DNA from: Candidatus Aminicenantes bacterium
Lineage (GTDB): Bacteria; Acidobacteriota; Aminicenantia; Aminicenantales; Saccharicenantaceae
Reading direction: 5' to 3'
Assembly: GCA_963754085.1 (NCBI GenBank)
Contig: CAVWFA010000009.1
Span: forward strand, 7,086-71,085
DNA length: 64,000 bases
In this document: piece by piece, positions 53,932 through 64,000 of the stretch
Position numbering within the stretch: the first letter of the stretch is position 1
Layout: each line of letters starts with the position of its first letter
Translations under genes and position numbers: made by a program
The notes under the pieces: model-generated
Databases searched by the model: none
The model's input: only the letters and a program-made list of their open reading frames with translations
What the model was told of the DNA's origin: nothing

Positions 53932-54921
53932 TTACCCTTCGCCGCGGATCAGCCGGCCGACCTTGGCCAGCGTTTCGACGTCGATGGGCCGGAGCCGGCC
54001 ATCGGTGCCCGGGCCGACATCGATCGAGAAGATGTTGCCGTACTTCACCGCCCCCAGATAATCCGCATAGATCTTCTCGACGGGAAGGACAAGGCGGTCG
54101 TGCTTCGGCAGGGAGTAGAACCAGTTCGCCCCGCCCTCGTGTTCGGGCAGGATGGGGTAGGTGAACTCGGCCAGCCGGTAGCCCGCGCTCGGCACATCCT
54201 TCATGAACGGCCCCGCGGCCGCGCTGTCGGTGAGGGGGCCCGGCCGGCCCATCTCGCCGAGGCGGATGTCGGCCCCGTCCTGGTCGCCGTGGTTGAAGCC
54301 GACGAAGCAGCCCGGCTGGAGAGATTTGCACCAGGCGGCGGTCTCCCTGTGGCTCAGGCCGCCCGTGCCCACGGCGTGGTCGAACCAGATGTATTCGATG
54401 GGACCGTACTCCGTCAGCAGCTCCTTCAGCTGGGCTTTCTTCATTTCGGGGTTGGAACCGCCCTCAGCGATCTTCCCGTCGACCGCGCCGGGCCAGGTCC
54501 AATCCCCTTCCGAGAAATAAAGCGCCAGCTTGATGCCGAACTTGTCGCAGCTTTTCCTGAGCTCGGCCAGGACGTCCCGGCCGAGGGGGGCGTTGGTGAC
54601 CTTGCGCGCGGTGGTCTTCGTGTCCCAGAGACAGAAGCCGTCGTGGTGCTTGGTCAGGAACAGGATGTAGCCCATGCCGGCGTCCTTGGCGGTGCGCGCC
54701 CACTGGTCCGTGTCGACGGCGGCGGCCCTGAAGAAGGACACGTCCGTGACGCCCGGCGTCCATTCCTTGCCGGAGAACGTGCTGAAGCTCCAGCAGATGA
54801 ACATCCCCCAGCGCAGGTTCTTCAACTCTTCGGCGCGCTTGGCCATATCCACGGGCTGGGTGGCGCCGAGCGAAAGGGCGATCGCGAACAGGGCCAGCAG
54901 GGTCTTCGCCGTCTTGGTCAT
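53932..54921 (-). CDS. alpha-L-fucosidase (GH29 catalytic domain), secreted
   Basis: WGMFICWSFSTFSGKEW, YILFLTKHHDGFCLWDT, EYIWFDHA. The start is set at MTKTAKTLLALFAIALSLGA (GAGGAG RBS). Confidence 0.8.
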   Translation of the reverse strand: MTKTAKTLLALFAIALSLGATQPVDMAKRAEELKNLRWGMFICWSFSTFSGKEWTPGVTDVSFFRAAAVDTDQWARTAKDAGMGYILFLTKHHDGFCLWDTKTTARKVTNAPLGRDVLAELRKSCDKFGIKLALYFSEGDWTWPGAVDGKIAEGGSNPEMKKAQLKELLTEYGPIEYIWFDHAVGTGGLSHRETAAWCKSLQPGCFVGFNHGDQDGADIRLGEMGRPGPLTDSAAAGPFMKDVPSAGYRLAEFTYPILPEHEGGANWFYSLPKHDRLVLPVEKIYADYLGAVKYGNIFSIDVGPGTDGRLRPIDVETLAKVGRLIRGEG

Positions 54922-55016
54922 CACGTCTCCTCTCATGCCGGAGCCGGTTGTTCAGGAAGGTGTTCGCATGATACTCGGGCCCCCGCGCCGGCGTCAACCG
55001 CCGCCGGAGGGATCGA

Positions 55017-55074: not shown

Positions 55075-56262
55075 TCAGCGGCGCGCCGCCGGACTCGTCT
55101 CCACCAATTCGCTCGGCTCGATCATCACGTTCCCGGGCCCTATGCCTCCCGCGACCAGGATCCGGCCGTCGGGCAGGCGCGTGGCGCTATGCCAGAACCG
55201 GCCTTGGAGAAGGCGGCCGCACTCGGTGGAGCTCCCGACGAGGGGATCGTATTTTTCGATCTCCGGGACGAGATCGGATGGGTGCGGCCACGCGTAGCCG
55301 CCGATGACCAGGATCTCGCCTGTTTCTTCGAGGAGCGTGAGGCTTGCGGCCGCCCGGGGGTGGATCAGTCCGGCCCGGCTTTCGAAGAGGCCCGTCCCGG
55401 GATCGTAGAGCGCTGCGAAATTGTGCACCATATCGAGATACAGGATCTTCCCCGATGGCAGCTCCACGGCCTTATGCCCATAGCCGAGAGGGATCGGATA
55501 GGGGGCGTCGCCCAATCCAAAGGTCGCGGTGACCGGATCGAACAGCTCAAGATCGACCGGGTAGAACGTCAGGCCGCCGTACCAGCTCGCGCCGCCGGCG
55601 ATGAGCACGAGGCCCGAATCCAGCAGCGCGGCGGTGTGACCGGTCCGGCAATGCCACATCTCTCCGGCAGGGGCGAAAGTCCCGGTCGCCGGATCGAACA
55701 GCTCGCATTCCTTGTTCACGCTGTCGATATATCGGCCATCCCCGCCGGCCAATAGCACCCGGCCGTCCGCCAGGAGCGTCGCCGTATGGTCACGGCGGGC
55801 GGTGATCATGGGCCCGCTGGCCGGCTCGAACCGGTTCGTCGCCGGGTCAAAGACCTCGGCCTGGTCCGTCGCGATCAGGTAGGGGTCCAGCGACTGCCCC
55901 CCCGCGACGAGGACGCGTCCGTCGCGCAGGAGGGTCGCCGTGAACTCGGTCCTTTTCAAGGCCATGGACCCGGCCGGCCGGACCCGGCCGGAGACCGGAG
56001 AGATGATCAGCGCAGTGGCCGTCGCCTCGGACCCCTCCGGATCCGGGGGAGCCGGGACCCGGCCGCCGATGACCAGGATCCGTCCGTCCAGCAGAGTGAT
56101 TGCCGCGTGGCCGGCCCGGCCCGGCGAAATGACGGGAGGAGAGAAGCTCTGCGGCTCGGGGCTGCAGCCCCAGAGGAAAACGAAACTCCATGCGACCGCG
56201 AGTGCGAGCGCCGGCATCGCCGGCACAAACAGGACTCCCTTGAAAATCGACCGGGTTTTCAT
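55075..56262 (-). CDS. Kelch-repeat beta-propeller protein, secreted
   Basis: Six repeats with the DGR(I/V)L(V/L)(I/A)GG signature: GRILVIGG, DGRVLVAGG, DGRVLLAGG, SGLVLIAGG, GEILVIGG, DGRILVAGG. Signal peptide after MKTRSIFKGV. Confidence 0.8.
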   Translation of the reverse strand: MKTRSIFKGVLFVPAMPALALAVAWSFVFLWGCSPEPQSFSPPVISPGRAGHAAITLLDGRILVIGGRVPAPPDPEGSEATATALIISPVSGRVRPAGSMALKRTEFTATLLRDGRVLVAGGQSLDPYLIATDQAEVFDPATNRFEPASGPMITARRDHTATLLADGRVLLAGGDGRYIDSVNKECELFDPATGTFAPAGEMWHCRTGHTAALLDSGLVLIAGGASWYGGLTFYPVDLELFDPVTATFGLGDAPYPIPLGYGHKAVELPSGKILYLDMVHNFAALYDPGTGLFESRAGLIHPRAAASLTLLEETGEILVIGGYAWPHPSDLVPEIEKYDPLVGSSTECGRLLQGRFWHSATRLPDGRILVAGGIGPGNVMIEPSELVETSPAARR

Positions 56263-56295
56263 TTCCGCCTCTTTCAGGAGCCGACTATACAAGCA

Positions 56296-56930: not shown

Positions 56931-56951
56931 CTATTTGAGCAGGATGAGCGA
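56931..56951. repeat. 21-bp direct repeat B (the functional 3' end of the LVIVD gene)
   Basis: Partner of 56546..56566. Confidence 0.8.
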
Positions 56952-58868
56952 ATAGGTGTCGGCGACGAGGATGGTCTTGCCGAGGAGACAGAGGTTCTGG
57001 GCCTCTCCGGGCGTGTCATAGGACGAAACGAGCCGGGGGGCTTTTGGATCGGAGACATCGAATTTCTTGACCCCCGCCAACCCGTCGGCGACGAAGGCGA
57101 AGTCCCCGTCCAGGACGACGGCGCTGGCGAAATCGTCGACGGCGGCCGTGCCCAGGACCTTCGGCGCGTCGGGCCGCCCGACGTCAACGACGATCAGACC
57201 GTCGGCCCCGGCGGCCACGAAGGCGAGCGGACCGCGGACGGCAAGACCGGTCGGCTCCCCCGCCAACTTGAAGGCGGCGATCTGGACCGGCGCTTCGGGC
57301 TTCTTGATATCGATGACATGGAGCCCCGTGTCGCTGTTGGCCAGGAAGGCGATGTCGCCGGAGACGGCCAGTCCGTAGGTGAATCCGGACAGCTTGAACG
57401 AGCCGACGATCTTCGGCAGGGCCGGGTCGGTGAAGTCGAGAGTATAGAAGCCGAAGTTGTCGGCGGTGAGATAGCCGGCGGTCCCCCGGACGACCAGGGT
57501 CCTGGGGATGCCCTCGGTGAAGGTCAGGGGCTTGCCCGCCCTGGGCTTGGCCGGGTCGGTGACATCGAAGACCTTGATCGACCAGCGGTCGGTGACGTAG
57601 ACGAAGTTCCCGCCCGCCGCGATCCCTTGGACGCCGCGGAAGATGCTGGTCCCGCCGACGAGGGCGGGCCGGGCCGGGTCGCCGACGTTGACGGCCATGA
57701 CCCCCGAGAGCTCCCCGACCGCGTAGGCGTGGCGGTCGCGGCCGCAGACGGCGATGACGGAGCTCGGAGCGGCCAAGCGTGCCGTGACCTTCGGCTTGGC
57801 CGGATCGGCGAAGTCGACGAAGAAGATCCCGGAAAAGTAGTCGATAACGACGCCGGCGTCTCCGTCGAGGACGACCCGCCAGCCCTCGTTGTACATGGTG
57901 TACTTGTTGGTCGAGAGGACGGCTGGAGCGGCCGGGTTCGTGATGTCCAGGACCTGGTAGCCGCCGTCGTAGAGGCTGCCGACGCCAAGCAGCTTCCCGC
58001 TCACCGAGACGCTCCGGGCATATCCCGACGCGACCAGGGAGGCGGCCAGTTTCGGCGCGGCCGGTGCGGACGCGTCCACGACCTTGAGCCCGCCGGCCCC
58101 GTCGGCGATATAGGCATAGTCACCTGCCAGCGCGACCCCCTCGGCCGTCCCGTCCGTGTCGAGGGCCCCGACGGGCTTGAGCTTCGCCGGCGCCGAGACG
58201 TCGACGATCGCGAGGCCGCCGCTGCCGTCGGCGACGAAGAGGGACTTGCCTTTGAGCGCGAGCCCGGTCGCCTCGCCGGGCGAATCCCAGGCGCCGAGGA
58301 GCTTCGGCGCGGCCGGCCTGGCGATATCGACCGCCAGCACGCCGCCGGTCCCGTCGGCGACCAGGGCGACGGAGCCGTCGACCGCGACGTCGCGGGCCTG
58401 GCCCGGTGTGTCCAGGAGGCTCTTCAGGACCGGAGCCTTCGGATCGGTGATATCGATCACGGCCAGGCCCTTGTCGGACGCCGCGACCAGCGCCAGGTTC
58501 CCCGCCAACGAGACGGCGAAGCCGCCGCCGAGATGAAGGCTGGAAAGCGCCTGCGGCTTCTTCGGATCGGACAGGTCCAGGATCTGCAGTCCGTCGAGGA
58601 ACGCGCAGTAGGCCCGCCCGTCCCGGACCTCGACGTCGTGGGCTTTCGTCCACAGGGACGAGCCGAGGAAGGCCAGCTGTCCCTCGTCCGGCCCGACGCC
58701 GGCCGACCCGGTCGTCGCGGACAACCCGGTTGTCGAGGACGACCCGGCGACCGCCAAGAACGCAAGAACAGGAAGCATCCCCAAGACGGATCTCGGTTTA
58801 ATCATGTTCGCCCTCCGCTGCGGCGACTCGCCTGGATTATTCATGAAAACGCCGTTATTCTCCATCAA
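56931..58868 (-). CDS. LVIVD-repeat beta-propeller protein, secreted
   Basis: Repeated motifs LVADGTGGVLAVDI, FVADGSGGLAIVDV, YIADGAGGLKVVDA, FVADGLAGVKKFDVSDP. Signal peptide SVLGMLPVLAFLAVAGS. The exact start is uncertain. Confidence 0.75.
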   Translation of the reverse strand: MMENNGVFMNNPGESPQRRANMIKPRSVLGMLPVLAFLAVAGSSSTTGLSATTGSAGVGPDEGQLAFLGSSLWTKAHDVEVRDGRAYCAFLDGLQILDLSDPKKPQALSSLHLGGGFAVSLAGNLALVAASDKGLAVIDITDPKAPVLKSLLDTPGQARDVAVDGSVALVADGTGGVLAVDIARPAAPKLLGAWDSPGEATGLALKGKSLFVADGSGGLAIVDVSAPAKLKPVGALDTDGTAEGVALAGDYAYIADGAGGLKVVDASAPAAPKLAASLVASGYARSVSVSGKLLGVGSLYDGGYQVLDITNPAAPAVLSTNKYTMYNEGWRVVLDGDAGVVIDYFSGIFFVDFADPAKPKVTARLAAPSSVIAVCGRDRHAYAVGELSGVMAVNVGDPARPALVGGTSIFRGVQGIAAGGNFVYVTDRWSIKVFDVTDPAKPRAGKPLTFTEGIPRTLVVRGTAGYLTADNFGFYTLDFTDPALPKIVGSFKLSGFTYGLAVSGDIAFLANSDTGLHVIDIKKPEAPVQIAAFKLAGEPTGLAVRGPLAFVAAGADGLIVVDVGRPDAPKVLGTAAVDDFASAVVLDGDFAFVADGLAGVKKFDVSDPKAPRLVSSYDTPGEAQNLCLLGKTILVADTYSLILLK

Positions 58869-58909
58869 AGATAAAGAACCAAGAGCGGCGTTTTCATGAA
58901 TAGTCCAGG

Positions 58910-59806
58910 CTAGATCAGGACGTCGTCGGGCCAGCCTAGCTTGACCAGCTCGATCCGGGCGGGGTCGGCCGTGCCGATCCCGTACTTGGTGTCGGCGATC
59001 TGGATGTGCTTGGGGACCGGCGGGATCTCCTGGTCCGGGCCCAATTCGATCCGCCGCTTGGCCATGATCAGCCGGAGGCCGACCGAATCGACGGCCACCG
59101 GATCCTCGCCGACGATGAGGCCCTTGTAGTTCCAGACGTATCTGCGGCTGAAATTGTGCGGGCCGCGGCCGTGGAACTGCGGGGTCAGGGCGCAGAGGAC
59201 GTTCAGCCGCGTCTTGCCCTTGACCTGGGGCAGGAGGAAGAGCGAGCCGAGCGAAGCGCAGCTGTCGGGATGGTGGTCCGGCTGGGACTCGGCGAACATG
59301 ATGTAGTTCTTGAGGCAGCCCGACATGCCGGCCAGATAGTGCGTCCGGACGGGCCGGACGTTGATCAGGGCCGTGGCCTTGACGAAGAGCGGGTTCGTCC
59401 GCACGGTGTGGTCGTCGAGCCCGATGTTCGGCTCGGCGACGCCGGCGTCCAGGAGCCGGCGCTTGATGGCCTTCTCGACCGGGGCGGGCGTCGGCAGGAA
59501 GGACCAGACGTTGGTCTTGATGCCGACGACGTCCTCGGGCTTGACCAGCCGCTTGAACGCTTCGACCGGATCGCTCACGTCGAGGAGCTTCGAGACGGCG
59601 TCGTCGAGCATCTGTTGGATGACAGGCTCGTTGAATGCCGAATCGGCGTCGAGCGCGTCGGGGTGGCGGACGAGGACCACCCGGGTCTTCCCGGCCGGCG
59701 CGGCGCCGGTCTGGCCGAACGCGGTGGAAGCGGCGGACGCGCCCAGCACGGCGGCCGCGGTGCCTCGGATGAAATCGCGGCGGGTCATGAAGGATGTCAT
59801 GGTCAC
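58910..59806 (-). CDS. TAT-exported DUF362-domain protein
   Basis: The twin-arginine signal is MTRRDFIRGTAAAVLGASA. The body (VVLVRHPDA...VGIKTNVWS...INVRPVRTHYLAGMSGCLKNY...EDPVAVDSVGLRLI) fits DUF362. Confidence 0.65.
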   Translation of the reverse strand: MTMTSFMTRRDFIRGTAAAVLGASAASTAFGQTGAAPAGKTRVVLVRHPDALDADSAFNEPVIQQMLDDAVSKLLDVSDPVEAFKRLVKPEDVVGIKTNVWSFLPTPAPVEKAIKRRLLDAGVAEPNIGLDDHTVRTNPLFVKATALINVRPVRTHYLAGMSGCLKNYIMFAESQPDHHPDSCASLGSLFLLPQVKGKTRLNVLCALTPQFHGRGPHNFSRRYVWNYKGLIVGEDPVAVDSVGLRLIMAKRRIELGPDQEIPPVPKHIQIADTKYGIGTADPARIELVKLGWPDDVLI

Positions 59807-59807
59807 C

Positions 59808-60737
59808 TCATCGGGGCGGACGGGTGGCCGTCTCGGCCAGCCGCCCGGCGAATTCTTTCGACGACGCTTCGAAAACGACGGCCAGGACGCAGTCCCGCGT
59901 CCTGATCATCGACCATCCCTTCTTCTCGGTCAGGGCGGCCCCGTCGGCGTCCGCCTGGGGCAGAAGCGTTCTCAGGAACGACGCGGCCGCGGCGCCAGCT
60001 CTCGCGGCGTCGGGGTACCGGACGACGAGCAGCCGCGCGGAATCGCCGCCGACCGGGCCGGCCGCGCCAACCGGGTTGTCCGCGACGACCGGGTCGTATT
60101 CGGCGAACAGGCATTCGGTCTTCTCGTCGAGGTCCAAGACGTTCTCGGCGGAGACGAAATAGCGGTTGCTGAGATGGACGTGGTTGTGGAAATAAGCGGT
60201 CTTTCTCGGCTTCAATCCGGCCGTAGGCAGGACCTTGATCATGTCCGGCGGGGCGCCGTCGGGGACGAGGAGCGGCGCGACCGCCTTCCCCAGGTCGAGG
60301 ACGGCCATCTCCGCCTTGTCCTCGTTGCCAGAGACCGTGATCGACACGAAATAGCGGCCGCGCCAGAACCGCAGCAGCCCCGGGCCGTACTCCGAGCCCT
60401 GGCCGATCCCGGCCTCCGGGTCCTGCCGGTCGCAGGAGAACATACCGAAAGCTTCGGCCGGCGAGCCCATGTCGTAGATGTCCAGGGCGATCTCGTTCCC
60501 GGCGGCGTCGGCGTACTTGCGGACGAAGACCTCGCGGAAATCGAAGGCCAGGTAGACTTCCGCGCCCCCGTCCATGTAATCGTAGAGCGTCTTCCGGTCA
60601 TAGACCGCGTCCTCGCCGGACGCCTTCCAGTCCAGGACCTGCTTGGGGATCTTGGGTCCGAAATCCTTCACGGCACCTCCGACGACGGCAAGTAAGGCGG
60701 GTATGACCGCGAGGGTCAGGCATCGGGCGATCTGCAT
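59808..60737 (-). CDS. secreted protein of unknown function, paralogue B
   Basis: 309 aa. LYDYMDGGAEVYLAFDFREVFVRKY...GRYFVSITV is paralogous to 62522..63442 (LFNQIDGGAELFLEFGFVRLRLQAY...GRYFIQVDN). Confidence 0.55.
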   Translation of the reverse strand: MQIARCLTLAVIPALLAVVGGAVKDFGPKIPKQVLDWKASGEDAVYDRKTLYDYMDGGAEVYLAFDFREVFVRKYADAAGNEIALDIYDMGSPAEAFGMFSCDRQDPEAGIGQGSEYGPGLLRFWRGRYFVSITVSGNEDKAEMAVLDLGKAVAPLLVPDGAPPDMIKVLPTAGLKPRKTAYFHNHVHLSNRYFVSAENVLDLDEKTECLFAEYDPVVADNPVGAAGPVGGDSARLLVVRYPDAARAGAAAASFLRTLLPQADADGAALTEKKGWSMIRTRDCVLAVVFEASSKEFAGRLAETATRPPR

Positions 60738-60743
60738 CGGGAC

Positions 60744-62525
60744 CTACTTCTTCTCCAGGACGCCGATCCCGACTTCGGTCCCGTCCATATCGACGACCAC
60801 AAGGAGCGACCCGCTCGCCTGATAGTAGACGATGTTGAGGCTGCCGCCGCCCGCCGTGAAAGTGCCCGTCCATCGGCCGGGACGGCCCGCGTCGGCGTCG
60901 AACGTGCCGGCGAACACGGCGCCGGCCGCCGTCCGCCCGGCCTGGTTGGCATCAATGGTCCCGGCCAGCGCGCCGGCCGAAGCGTCCGCCCGTCCGATCC
61001 AATCGATCTCACCGGGAGTGGCGATGAACTGCAGGTTGACGGCGTAATCACCCTCGAAGGATCCCGGGATCCGGGGCACGATGAATCCCGTGGCGACCGC
61101 GCCGGCGTCCCAATCAAAGAGCAGGGCCCCGCCGCCCCCTTCGGCGCTCGAGGGATCGAAGAGGTTCAGGGTTGGGTCGACGGCGAAGATCAGCTGCGCG
61201 GACACGTTCCTTCGCTCGTCGACGGCGGGGGGGAAGTCCAGGGTGCCGACCCCGTCGGCGGCGATGGTGTACCGGGCCTGGCCCTCGAGCGAGGCAAAGG
61301 CGCCCGTCCCCGCGTTGTTCAGGTCGGAGGCGCCGGCCGTGAAATTGCCGGCCCCGTCGGAGGTGAACTGCCCGGCCATGGCCAGGGGCCCGTTCGACGT
61401 CCCCCCGGAGTGGGAGAAGACATAGTCCCCGGTCAGGGACGCGGCCGAGAACGTCGCGCTCATCCCCGCGTCCCCCTGCCCGTACATGCTGCCGCCGGTC
61501 ATGAAGGACGGATAGCCCTTTTCGACGAGCCTCAGCACCCGGCCCTCGACGGCGTAATAAGCGAAGTCGACGTTGACGTCGAGCGCGATCGTGCCCCGGC
61601 CGAACTGGTCCGGGGCCGTCACCGATCCCGTGGTCTCAGACAGGAACGTGAACCCCCCGTCGTTCTCGAAGTAGGTGCCGCTCGAGACCGCCCCGGACAG
61701 GGCGCTCATGATGAGGGCGCCGCCGCGGGCGATCGGCTGGTTGTAGGAAACGTCGACGCCCTGGGTCGTGAAGGCGAAGGCGCCGCTCAGGGCCGCGGCG
61801 TCGAGGGCTCCCGGGGCCTGAGCGTCGAGGCTCCCGCTCGAGGTCGCGGTCCCGTCGAACTGGGTGATGAGCGCGTGGGCGTTCGAGGTCAGGACGACGC
61901 TGAAGGTCTCGACGCCGTTGTTCGGAAGCTCCGCGTTGTCCACGACGAGCGTGATGCTGCCCCGGCCGTCCGGGCCGACGGCATAGGTCCCGGTGACGAG
62001 ATCGGGCCCGGCCTGGAGCGTCTCGTCGGAGTAATCCTGTTCTCCCCCGGTGATCGTGCCGTTGCCGTCGGCGACGATCGTTCCCGCGGCCGCGTAGCCT
62101 CCGGAGTTGTCCGCCCCCTGGACGGCGAAGACATAGGCGCCGTTGAGGCGGACGTTCGAACCCTCCGGGACGACGGTGACGGTCGCGCTGGCCGTGGCGC
62201 TGACGTCCGCGGCCGCGGTCACCGTGACCGTGACGGTGCCCGGCGACGCGGGGGCCGTGAAGGACGTGACACCGCCGTTGGCCGTATGGGCCGGCGCGAA
62301 GGCGCCGCAGGACCCGCCGCCGCACGACCAGTCGATCCCGGCCCCCGATTCGTCGTTGCCGACGTTCGCGGCCAAACGGACCGTCTGGTTGACCGTCACG
62401 ATCGCCGGGGCGTTGGTCAGCTGGATCGTCACCGCCGCCGGCTCCTGCTTGGCGCAGGCGGAAGACGAGACGACCGCGAAAGCCAGGGCCGCGATGAGTC
62501 CGGGATATCCGCAGAGCTTCTTCAT
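60744..62525 (-). CDS. lipoprotein with N-terminal Ig-like (Big_2-like) domain and a long Gly/Thr/Ala-rich beta-rich region
   Basis: Lipobox AFAVVSSSAC. VTVNQTVRLAANVGND...WSCGGGSCGAF...TVTVTVTAAAD. No catalytic motif. Confidence 0.55.
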   Translation of the reverse strand: MKKLCGYPGLIAALAFAVVSSSACAKQEPAAVTIQLTNAPAIVTVNQTVRLAANVGNDESGAGIDWSCGGGSCGAFAPAHTANGGVTSFTAPASPGTVTVTVTAAADVSATASATVTVVPEGSNVRLNGAYVFAVQGADNSGGYAAAGTIVADGNGTITGGEQDYSDETLQAGPDLVTGTYAVGPDGRGSITLVVDNAELPNNGVETFSVVLTSNAHALITQFDGTATSSGSLDAQAPGALDAAALSGAFAFTTQGVDVSYNQPIARGGALIMSALSGAVSSGTYFENDGGFTFLSETTGSVTAPDQFGRGTIALDVNVDFAYYAVEGRVLRLVEKGYPSFMTGGSMYGQGDAGMSATFSAASLTGDYVFSHSGGTSNGPLAMAGQFTSDGAGNFTAGASDLNNAGTGAFASLEGQARYTIAADGVGTLDFPPAVDERRNVSAQLIFAVDPTLNLFDPSSAEGGGGALLFDWDAGAVATGFIVPRIPGSFEGDYAVNLQFIATPGEIDWIGRADASAGALAGTIDANQAGRTAAGAVFAGTFDADAGRPGRWTGTFTAGGGSLNIVYYQASGSLLVVVDMDGTEVGIGVLEKK

Positions 62526-63442
62526 GGGCGACGCTCCGAAACCTCATTCGAGCTGTTGAACCGGATATCCAGGACGGCGCCGCGCCGGGTGACGGAGCCT
62601 TTCTTCGCCTGGAAGTCGACGAAATCGAACCCGTCGGGCCGTTCACGCGTGACCTTGAGATAGGGGTCGAGATCGGCCTTGAGATGGGCCAAGGCTTCCG
62701 CCGAAGCGGCCGGGTCGGGATAAGGCACGAGGAGCCTATGGAAGGTCGATCCGCCGGCCGTCTTGTAGGCGGCCAAGCCCCCGAAGACCCGGCCGCCGAG
62801 CGAGAGGGAATCCCCTTCCCCGAACGTGAAGTAGGGTTGGAGCCCGTAGGGTCCCCGGATCAGGCGCTCGGAACCCGGCATCTTTCCCTCGGCGGGAAGG
62901 AGGTCGAGCGGCGTCGGCGCCGCTTCCTGGGCGACGCCGGCCAGGAAGGCGTTGGCCAGGGCGACCGTCTCGGTCCGCGATGCGGCGACCTCGCCGAGGT
63001 TGTCGACCTGGATGAAATAGCGGCCCTTGAGGATGGTCAGCTGGATCTCTTCGGAAGAGTTGCGGGCCGCGATCCCGGCGAACGGGGCTTCTCGGCCCAT
63101 CTTCATCAGATAAACGCCGAGAGCGGACGCGGCGCTCTCCATCTCGTAGGCGTTGAGCGTCAGCTCGGCCCGGCCGCGGGCGTAGGCCTGGAGGCGCAGG
63201 CGGACGAATCCGAACTCGAGAAAGAGCTCGGCCCCGCCGTCGATCTGGTTGAAGAGGTCCTGGCCGGTGAACGTCCGCAACGCCCCGGCCTTGGCCCAGC
63301 CGGCGGCGAACATCGCCTCGGGAACGGCGGGCGGGCCCGGCGGCGTCTGGGCCGTCGCGAACAGGCCGCTCGATAGACAGGCCAATACTGAGAGAACGGC
63401 GAATCTCCCGGTCCCCTCGCGCGGCCCGTCAGACCTTGACAT
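62522..63442 (-). CDS. secreted protein of unknown function, paralogue A
   Basis: 306 aa with a signal peptide. A 4-nt ATGA overlap with the lipoprotein gene and a 14-nt overlap with the upstream DUF362 gene. Confidence 0.55.
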   Translation of the reverse strand: MSRSDGPREGTGRFAVLSVLACLSSGLFATAQTPPGPPAVPEAMFAAGWAKAGALRTFTGQDLFNQIDGGAELFLEFGFVRLRLQAYARGRAELTLNAYEMESAASALGVYLMKMGREAPFAGIAARNSSEEIQLTILKGRYFIQVDNLGEVAASRTETVALANAFLAGVAQEAAPTPLDLLPAEGKMPGSERLIRGPYGLQPYFTFGEGDSLSLGGRVFGGLAAYKTAGGSTFHRLLVPYPDPAASAEALAHLKADLDPYLKVTRERPDGFDFVDFQAKKGSVTRRGAVLDIRFNSSNEVSERRP

Positions 63443-64000
63443 GCGTGATCTTGGCCGGGTCGGCGATCCCCAGGCCCAGCTTCTCCGCGTAGCGCAGGTA
63501 ATTCGTGAAGCGGGGATTCTCGTTAACCGCGACGCCCATCTCCTTGCGCTTGGCCACGATCTTGGTATGGCAGACCAGGTCCAGTGCGAACGGGTCGGAG
63601 GCGAAATAGAGCCGGTTGTCGATGTAGGCGAACTTGGCGTTCTTGTCCGGGCCGCCGTCGTACTGCGACCGCAGGCCGTCGGTGACGTTGAGGACCATCT
63701 TGTCGCGCACGGGCCAGAAGGCCGGCACCTCGACGCAGACGTCCAGGAACAGGGGCGCGTGGAGCCGGTTCGTGTTGCAGACGGCGCCGTAGCCGATGTT
63801 CTTGGTGGCCATGGAGATGGCGTTGCCGGTGTTCTTGAACACGGGCAGGTTGACGATCTTGGTCAGCTTCTTGGTCAGGAGGTTGCCAAAGTAGGAGTGC
63901 TTGCCGTTGAAGACGTGCTGGTTGAGGTAAGGCAGGTCCTTGGGCCCCTCGACGTCGGCCCAGTAGAAGACCTCCTGGTCGAAGTTGGGCACGCTGACAT
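63429..64000 (-). CDS. DUF362-domain protein, 5' end beyond the window
   Basis: ...VNLPVFKNTGNAISMATKNIGYGAVCNTNRLH...ASDPFALDLVCHTKIVAKRKEMG... is the C-terminal DUF362 region. The ORF-track GTG start is an edge artefact. Confidence 0.6.
   Translation of the reverse strand, partial: VSVPNFDQEVFYWADVEGPKDLPYLNQHVFNGKHSYFGNLLTKKLTKIVNLPVFKNTGNAISMATKNIGYGAVCNTNRLHAPLFLDVCVEVPAFWPVRDKMVLNVTDGLRSQYDGGPDKNAKFAYIDNRLYFASDPFALDLVCHTKIVAKRKEMGVAVNENPRFTNYLRYAEKLGLGIADPAKITHVKV

Follow-up and report, generated by a model that had tools for sequence, protein, structure and literature searches.

The closest described counterparts of the system reported here are the LarA-type nickel-pincer enzymes, the periplasmic glucose-fructose oxidoreductase of Zymomonas and the nickel-pincer-dependent reductase NphT. 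The system itself is a pair of exported proteins of the Pfam families DUF362 and DUF6599, which occurs twice within a cluster of six minus-strand genes in a Candidatus Aminicenantes bacterium. The cluster lies in a stretch of 64,000 nucleotides (G000:C9:7086-71085; hereafter, the window) from a 2.96-Mb metagenome-assembled genome that is 73% complete, and orthologues of the cluster proteins are labelled Candidatus Aminicenantes in database matches. Judging by gene order in many phyla, DUF362 and DUF6599 appear to form an essentially obligate exported gene pair.

The DUF362 proteins belong to the same Pfam clan as the N-domain of LarA, the lactate racemase (PMC11770544). LarA enzymes are also the best, though remote, structural matches of the short DUF362, in which a His-x9-Lys segment, with a further conserved His downstream, aligns marginally with that of LarA. 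They are, however, half the size of LarA and lack its substrate-binding C-domain, and whereas LarA is cytoplasmic, DUF362 is predicted from its twin-arginine (RR) leader to be exported through the twin-arginine translocation (Tat) pathway. Pairing with DUF6599 and an extra invariant Cys set DUF362 further apart from LarA, and the pair is also found in genomes without the nickel insertase LarC. The papers searched mention DUF362 only as an outgroup to LarA and in CBM9/dockerin fusions, and a search on DUF6599/PF20244 returned no paper.

Glucose-fructose oxidoreductase (GFOR) of Zymomonas is a Tat-exported periplasmic enzyme of the GFO/IDH/MocA type with tightly bound NADP. Its likeness to the present system lies in cofactor-loaded Tat export, which would permit hydride or redox chemistry without free NAD(P)H, and in the Tat-signal GFO/IDH/MocA gene found near the lone DUF6599 of the window's genome. 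The fold of GFOR is nevertheless unrelated to DUF362, and we know of no DUF6599-type partner described for it. In the case of NphT, a nickel-pincer-dependent aldo/keto reductase that is cytoplasmic and found beside larBCE, nickel-pincer use extends beyond the LarA fold (PMC13524815). Aldo/keto reductases (AKRs) are also the second enzyme class that we find beside DUF6599; these, however, are Tat-signal proteins that end in a 4Fe-4S domain, and they are likened to NphT by family only, and no AKR lies within the window.

Organisation of the locus

The cluster comprises two modules, each with one DUF362 and one DUF6599 gene, and an insert between them:

63429-64000+, minus strand: 3' part of the long-type Tat-DUF362 gene (Pfam DUF362), first gene of module 1
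62522-63442, minus strand: DUF6599 paralogue A, 306 aa (PF20244, E 6.5e-27), module 1
60744-62525, minus strand: probable lipoprotein of 593 aa, weakly PKD/Ig-like at its N-terminus, insert between the modules
59808-60737, minus strand: DUF6599 paralogue B, 309 aa (PF20244, E 5.5e-33), first gene of module 2
58910-59806, minus strand: short-type Tat-DUF362, 298 aa (Pfam DUF362), putative catalytic subunit of module 2
56931-58868, minus strand: LVIVD beta-propeller, 645 aa as an open reading frame (ORF; LVIVD E 1.4e-67), secreted, third gene of module 2

The six ORFs, their order and their coordinates agree with an earlier sequence-only reading of the window, whose junctions of -14, -4, +6, +1 and +41 nt were reproduced, the ATGA and 14-nt overlaps being confirmed at base level. 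The ATGA overlap (-4) joins paralogue A to the lipoprotein gene, and the 14-nt overlap is that of the stop of the long DUF362 gene with the start of paralogue A. The first gene extends 667 nt past the window edge; read whole (G000:C9:70514-71752), it encodes a DUF362 protein of 412 aa. The order of the pair is mirrored within the cluster, with DUF362 preceding DUF6599 in module 1 and following it in module 2, and a tandem repeat order is not seen.

Two gene starts deserve mention. The LVIVD ORF has a TTG start at its 5' end (window 58803-58868) and exceeds its orthologues (612-623 aa) by 22-33 aa; the true start may lie further downstream, the protein being probably of about 612-623 aa, and since the TTG start is uncertain the +41 junction may be larger. 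At the 5' end of paralogue B (window 60672-60737), a database gene call of 287 aa would delete the leader; the 309-aa form is favoured because a hydrophobic N-terminus is conserved among orthologues. A promoter and terminator scan of the locus gave nothing exceeding shuffled expectation.

Linkage of DUF362 and DUF6599 across genomes

The linkage was surveyed in 80 DUF6599 loci from named genomes, scanned with hidden Markov models (HMMs) built in this analysis. These loci come from Aminicenantes, other Acidobacteriota, Desulfobacterales, Syntrophobacterales, Omnitrophota, Armatimonadota, Gemmatimonadota, Sumerlaeota, Glassbacteria and others. A Tat-signal DUF362 gene stands directly downstream of DUF6599, on the same strand, in 78 of the 78 loci that could be assessed, the contig stopping just after DUF6599 in the other two. 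Around distant loci, the only conserved genes are the pair itself. The sequence-only reading had proposed an undescribed exported system, and the survey speaks for this proposal, as the linkage is conserved well beyond the window's genome and the paralogues belong to no characterised family.

Within the window's genome, which has seven DUF6599 genes and at least 11 DUF362 genes, a DUF362 gene is the immediate neighbour of six of the seven, in three arrangements (DUF362 then DUF6599, DUF6599 then DUF362, and divergent). Divergence of the two partners is correlated across loci (r = 0.95), and DUF6599 is the less conserved of the two in 67 of 67 loci (48% vs 63% identity).

Some lineages add further genes to the pair. 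An LVIVD orthologue is the next gene after DUF362 in about 44 loci of the 80 surveyed, namely those of Aminicenantes together with L065, L067, L069 and L070, and the window protein matches Pfam LVIVD (PF08309) with 223 bits over 10 repeats. The propeller thus reads as a conserved third gene of module 2 only. In Desulfobacterales and others (L074, L081, L089, L092, L096, L097) a second, tandem Tat-DUF362 follows the pair, and in seven loci a NapH-type polyferredoxin membrane protein of about 540 aa also does so; the lineages concerned may thus connect the pair with electron transfer at the membrane.

Features of the DUF362 proteins

The matches of the DUF362 proteins to Pfam DUF362 (PF04015) score 34, 36.3 and 37.5 bits, the gathering score being 24. 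The short protein and the in-window fragment of the long one match only the C-terminal half of the profile, and the full-length 412-aa protein matches positions 18-198 of 200 (E 3.4e-9); short and long forms are best described, on these sequences, as divergent subfamilies. A Tat motif is present in each, TRRDFIRG in one and GRRDFLKAG in the long protein, which also matches Pfam TAT_signal (E 2.4e-4). A TIGR01409 Tat signal reaches 16.4 bits, just under the cut-off of 16.7, and apart from this near-threshold match the NCBIfam scan of the cluster proteins returned no family. The genome also has a TatC gene. The Sec and Tat leaders assigned earlier to the cluster products were confirmed, with lipobox-like sequences for the lipoprotein type, and the first DUF362 joins them with a Tat signal once its gene is read complete.

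Among short-type orthologues, R9 and R10 of the leader are invariant in 68 of 68 sequences, and K97, D132, K166, N167, H179, C183, W225, Y227, D235, D240 and R251 are invariant as well. In the long DUF362, K166/N167, H179 and C183 have their counterparts (K-N, H and C), and H156 is replaced by Asn, a replacement also described in a LarA subgroup (PMC12611868). The motifs K..H-x9-KN..H and DPvAxD are retained in nearly all 11 DUF362 paralogues of the genome.

Most of these paralogues, of which there are at least 11, carry RR(D/E)F twin-arginine leaders, so that DUF362 is mainly of the exported type in this genome:

C16:220311-221312, C16:452744-453766 and C16:633695-634729: DUF362 paralogues with RR(D/E)F leaders
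C15:242726-243694, C3:440338-441558 and C15:91227-92120: further DUF362 paralogues with RR(D/E)F leaders

The AF2 model of the short DUF362 (pLDDT 91) covers 298 aa, with no second domain. Its top Foldseek matches are of the LarA type (9q3k, with a probability of 0.98, 6d6z, 7s91, 2yjg and 9eia), and the model would accordingly place DUF362 in a remote LarA-like fold. An hhalign comparison with a LarA profile, built from 17 sequences and showing the invariant residues expected of LarA enzymes, places H156...K166 of DUF362 on LarA H170...K180, the catalytic His and the cofactor-tether Lys, which we take to be His174 and Lys184 of the L. plantarum enzyme. H179 lies 13 residues past the Lys, the equivalent spacing in LarA being 16. 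No equivalent of the first LarA catalytic His (His108) was found in DUF362, a single LarA sequence gave no significant hhalign match to DUF362, and in Pfam at E <= 0.1 no window protein matches Lar_N (PF09861), the DUF362 proteins matching DUF362 only.

The DUF6599 paralogues and their other partners

Paralogues A and B, which had been listed earlier as unknown proteins, are indeed uncharacterised but not family-less: both are members of Pfam DUF6599 (PF20244), with 94.7 bits for paralogue A and 114.5 bits for paralogue B (gathering score 27). DUF6599 is a catalogued family without a characterised member, and NCBI names the orthologues 'DUF6599 family protein'. Regarding the motifs ascribed to both proteins, DGGAE and GRYF(I/V) are common to them, while the longer motif that had been written around DGGAE is slightly out of register for paralogue B. 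D56-G-G-A-E60 is invariant across 78 DUF6599 sequences, D56 and E60 being the sole invariant polar residues.

Paralogue A has a hydrophobic leader of Sec or lipoprotein type with a lipobox-like ...SVLAC (loose lipobox pattern), and its orthologues in Aminicenantes are 67-87% identical to it; the leader of paralogue B is of the Sec type, without a lipobox. Hydrophobic Sec-type leaders are found at 71 of 75 assessable DUF6599 N-termini, 18 of the 71 with a lipobox-like Cys. The AF2 model of paralogue B (pLDDT 92.5) shows two alpha+beta domains in tandem, for which no close structural relative emerged in the PDB. The best Foldseek matches of this model, TiME, PknH-sensor, RseB and LprG, have an extracytoplasmic location in common with DUF6599; they are, however, weak (TM 0.2-0.39, E >= 0.007), with no shared motif found, and are not evidence of homology.

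DUF6599 members that score low against the paired-clade HMM do not adjoin DUF362. Five of them, all from Acidobacteriota (L114, L118, L119, L120, L121), adjoin Tat-signal AKRs that carry a C-terminal 4Fe-4S dicluster domain, an exported architecture that merits a study of its own. Additionally, the lone DUF6599 of the window's genome lies two genes from a Tat-signal GFO/IDH/MocA oxidoreductase. These contexts and the NapH-type neighbours suggest that DUF6599 accompanies Tat-exported redox-type enzymes in general.

Independence of the two modules

The sequence-only reading had taken the cluster for an internally duplicated gene pair built around a surface lipoprotein, and neither part of this description agrees with our results. 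The modules are only 25-32% identical: BLASTP aligns paralogue A with its homologue, paralogue B, at 25% identity over 220 aa (E 2e-15), and the two DUF362 proteins share about 32% identity over their C-terminal parts, whereas orthologues of each module's proteins in other genomes reach 60-90%. Moreover, each module member has a closer paralogue elsewhere in the window's genome.

The modules also exist as independent operons. In L018, a unit of DUF6599, DUF362 (293 aa) and a 612-aa protein is separated by three unrelated genes from a unit of DUF362 (412 aa) and DUF6599, and L128 has the long-type pair by itself, its two genes overlapping by 14 nt just as they do in the window. Long DUF362 orthologues of 412-413 aa precede DUF6599 in L018, in L128 and on contig C11. 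A tandem internal duplication is rejected by the low identity, the mirrored order and the separate units of L018 and L128. As far as gene order and identity tell, the cluster consists of two old, divergent modules joined in one tightly packed unit in this lineage, the six-gene layout recurring only in L127, a relative with about 89% identity.

The lipoprotein would be a passenger between them, inserted in this lineage. The leader of the 593-aa protein (...AVVSSSAC) fits a loose lipobox pattern, and its PKD matches, limited to residues 34-118, stay below gathering (PF22352, 21.7 bits for a cut-off of 27; PF00801, 18.2 for 23.5). No PDB relative was found by sequence search. It belongs to a family of proteins of about 595 aa, without a Pfam domain, in Aminicenantes and Terriglobia. 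In three other contexts checked (L124-L126) this family does not adjoin DUF362 or DUF6599, and a homologue is absent from all 80 related pair loci; on both grounds the lipoprotein was rejected as the core of the system.

A second copy of module 1 was observed on contig C11, where C11:9889-13558 matches C9:69640-73300 with 84.6% DNA identity and contains a second copy of the fucosidase, a long DUF362 (90% protein identity to the C9 copy) and a DUF6599-A copy. The copy stems either from another strain binned together with this one or from a segmental duplication. The protein alignment of its DUF6599 breaks off at residue 243 of 306 although the DNA remains homologous beyond it, and this points to a frameshift or misassembly near that residue. 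No riboswitch was found with Rfam in the region upstream of the operon or in its C11 counterpart.

Proposed model and alternative explanations

We consider it probable, with moderate confidence, that the locus encodes two independent periplasmic modules, each made of a cofactor-loaded DUF362 catalytic subunit and a non-catalytic DUF6599 partner. The model builds on the gene linkage, on export signals and conserved residues, on the remote likeness to the LarA fold and on the independence of the modules described above, and from these we infer that DUF362 and DUF6599 interact physically and that DUF362 is a catalyst that binds a cofactor. The Tat pathway transports proteins that are already folded. 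DUF362 would thus fold, and probably load its cofactor or metal, in the cytoplasm and leave by this pathway; in the periplasm it would convert a small molecule through redox chemistry or hydride transfer, the conserved Lys/His(/Cys) pocket being the putative catalytic site. DUF6599, exported by Sec and sometimes lipidated, may dock or anchor Tat-exported redox-type enzymes or present substrate to them, and in Aminicenantes the LVIVD beta-propeller would join the short-type module as a third component.

Several points weigh against this model. Adjacent genes prove that the two are inherited together and make a common function probable, but they do not prove a physical complex. In fold, LarA is a remote match (TM 0.27-0.37, Foldseek E >= 3e-3), the hhalign match to the LarA profile is short and marginal (35 columns, E 0.0055), and no PDB relative was found by sequence or profile for the six proteins or for both family profiles. 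Fe-S motifs are absent from the cluster proteins, and Tat can also export cofactor-less, fast-folding proteins. The neighbours other than DUF362 differ by lineage (sulfatase, beta-lactamase-type hydrolase, URO-D, fucosidases), so that the substrate is not inferable from them. Furthermore, a usable RNA run for the locus was not found, the locus being matched in DNA metagenomes only.

A broader version of the model can be drawn from the partners of DUF6599. We regard as speculative, and on present evidence unlikely, the view that DUF6599 is the shared periplasmic subunit of an unrecognised class of Tat-exported hydride-transfer or redox enzymes with a permanently bound nicotinate- or nicotinamide-type cofactor. 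The class would include the LarA-fold DUF362, the AKR-4Fe4S proteins and perhaps GFO/IDH/MocA enzymes, with the nickel-pincer cofactor where LarBCE are present. If true, it would allow isomerisation or redox conversion of sugars and organic acids outside the cytoplasm independently of NAD(P)H, and in some lineages NapH-type polyferredoxins would connect the system to the membrane.

One rival explanation holds that DUF362 is a LarA-like racemase, epimerase or hydride shuttle that LarB/C/E load with the nickel-pincer cofactor in the cytoplasm, hence its export through Tat, and that DUF6599 replaces the substrate-binding C-domain of LarA in trans; we think this rather improbable. Structurally, LarA-type nickel-pincer nucleotide (NPN) enzymes are the top fold matches, H156-x9-K166 aligns with the LarA catalytic His and tether Lys, H179 falls near the Ni-ligand His position, and the Asn of the long DUF362 recalls the LarA subgroup that has it (PMC12611868), but an equivalent of His108, the LarA C-domain and a Pfam Lar_N match are all absent. 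A redox-neutral, bound hydride carrier would suit a periplasm free of NAD(P)H, and a literature search found no paper linking the nickel-pincer cofactor with Tat.

The genomic record of LarC likewise cuts both ways. LarC is present in the window's genome, where one canonical LarA can account for it, and in 37 of 43 pair-bearing genomes. Among 301 Acidobacteriota genomes at least 90% complete, it occurs in 86% of those with DUF6599 vs 67% of those without (odds ratio 2.9), an association that is not corrected for phylogeny and that stands on a base rate in the phylum of already 76%. However, the closed 5.3-Mb chromosome G040 has the pair and no LarC, and four further genomes (G158, G200, G254 and G160; 95-100% complete) lack LarC while keeping DUF6599 followed by DUF362 with the full DUF362 motif. 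An obligatory dependence on the nickel-pincer cofactor is rejected by these genomes, and the cofactor therefore cannot be a general requirement; it is possible in LarC-positive lineages.

The distribution of LarC in the phylum is of interest in itself. LarC was found in 229 of the 301 genomes and canonical LarA (Lar_N) in 16 of 41 sampled. Since LarC is far commoner than LarA, many genomes would produce the nickel-pincer cofactor although no LarA-type client is known in them, and other clients must exist.

It is distinctly improbable, in our judgement, that DUF6599 is a post-export maturation factor, chaperone or inhibitor that acts transiently on DUF362 and on the AKR-Fe-S proteins. Such a role would agree with its partnering two or three unrelated Tat-exported enzyme folds, with its lack of a catalytic-looking residue set and with its faster evolution relative to its client. 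The one-to-one gene stoichiometry and the co-divergence of the partners fit a stable partner at least as well, however, and types A and B of DUF6599 are distinct, each with its own type of DUF362. Periplasmic chaperones that serve Tat cargo specifically are, to our knowledge, without precedent, which also counts against this role.

Finally, a single integrated surface or periplasmic machine, largely structural or adhesive, with the lipoprotein as core, the duplicated pairs as arms and LVIVD as a surface part, is highly improbable: the six exported products, the translationally coupled or nearly coupled junctions, the same layout in the close relative L127 and LVIVD and PKD-like domains typical of surface proteins would suit it, but the lipoprotein family is found apart from the pairs in L124-L126 and has no homologue in the 80 pair loci, the modules form operons of their own in L018 and L128, in most phyla the pair is accompanied by neither LVIVD nor the lipoprotein, and the invariant Lys/His/Cys/Asp set of DUF362 looks catalytic rather than structural.

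Genomic neighbourhood and implications

The neighbourhood of glycan-degrading enzymes that the sequence-only reading had noticed is real, as GH29 fucosidases bracket the cluster:

C9:71869-73197 (window-equivalent 64784-66112), minus strand: secreted GH29 alpha-L-fucosidase (Pfam E 5e-96)
53932-54936 and 55075-56292 of the window: second GH29-like gene and Kelch-repeat protein, downstream of the cluster

The gene of the secreted fucosidase ends 116 nt upstream of the first DUF362, on the same strand, and fills what appeared to be a 1.5-kb gap upstream of the operon. These neighbours hint at sugars or sugar acids as the substrate.

Together, our findings join DUF362, a large and long unexplained family, and DUF6599, a family without literature, into one testable hypothesis, that of a periplasmic enzyme with a dedicated partner, and the LarC-negative genomes set a clear limit on the nickel-pincer idea. 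The module is present in multiple copies in Aminicenantes, abundant uncultured bacteria of sediments, and, lying as it does among glycan-degrading genes, it may account for a missing step in the processing of carbon outside the cell.

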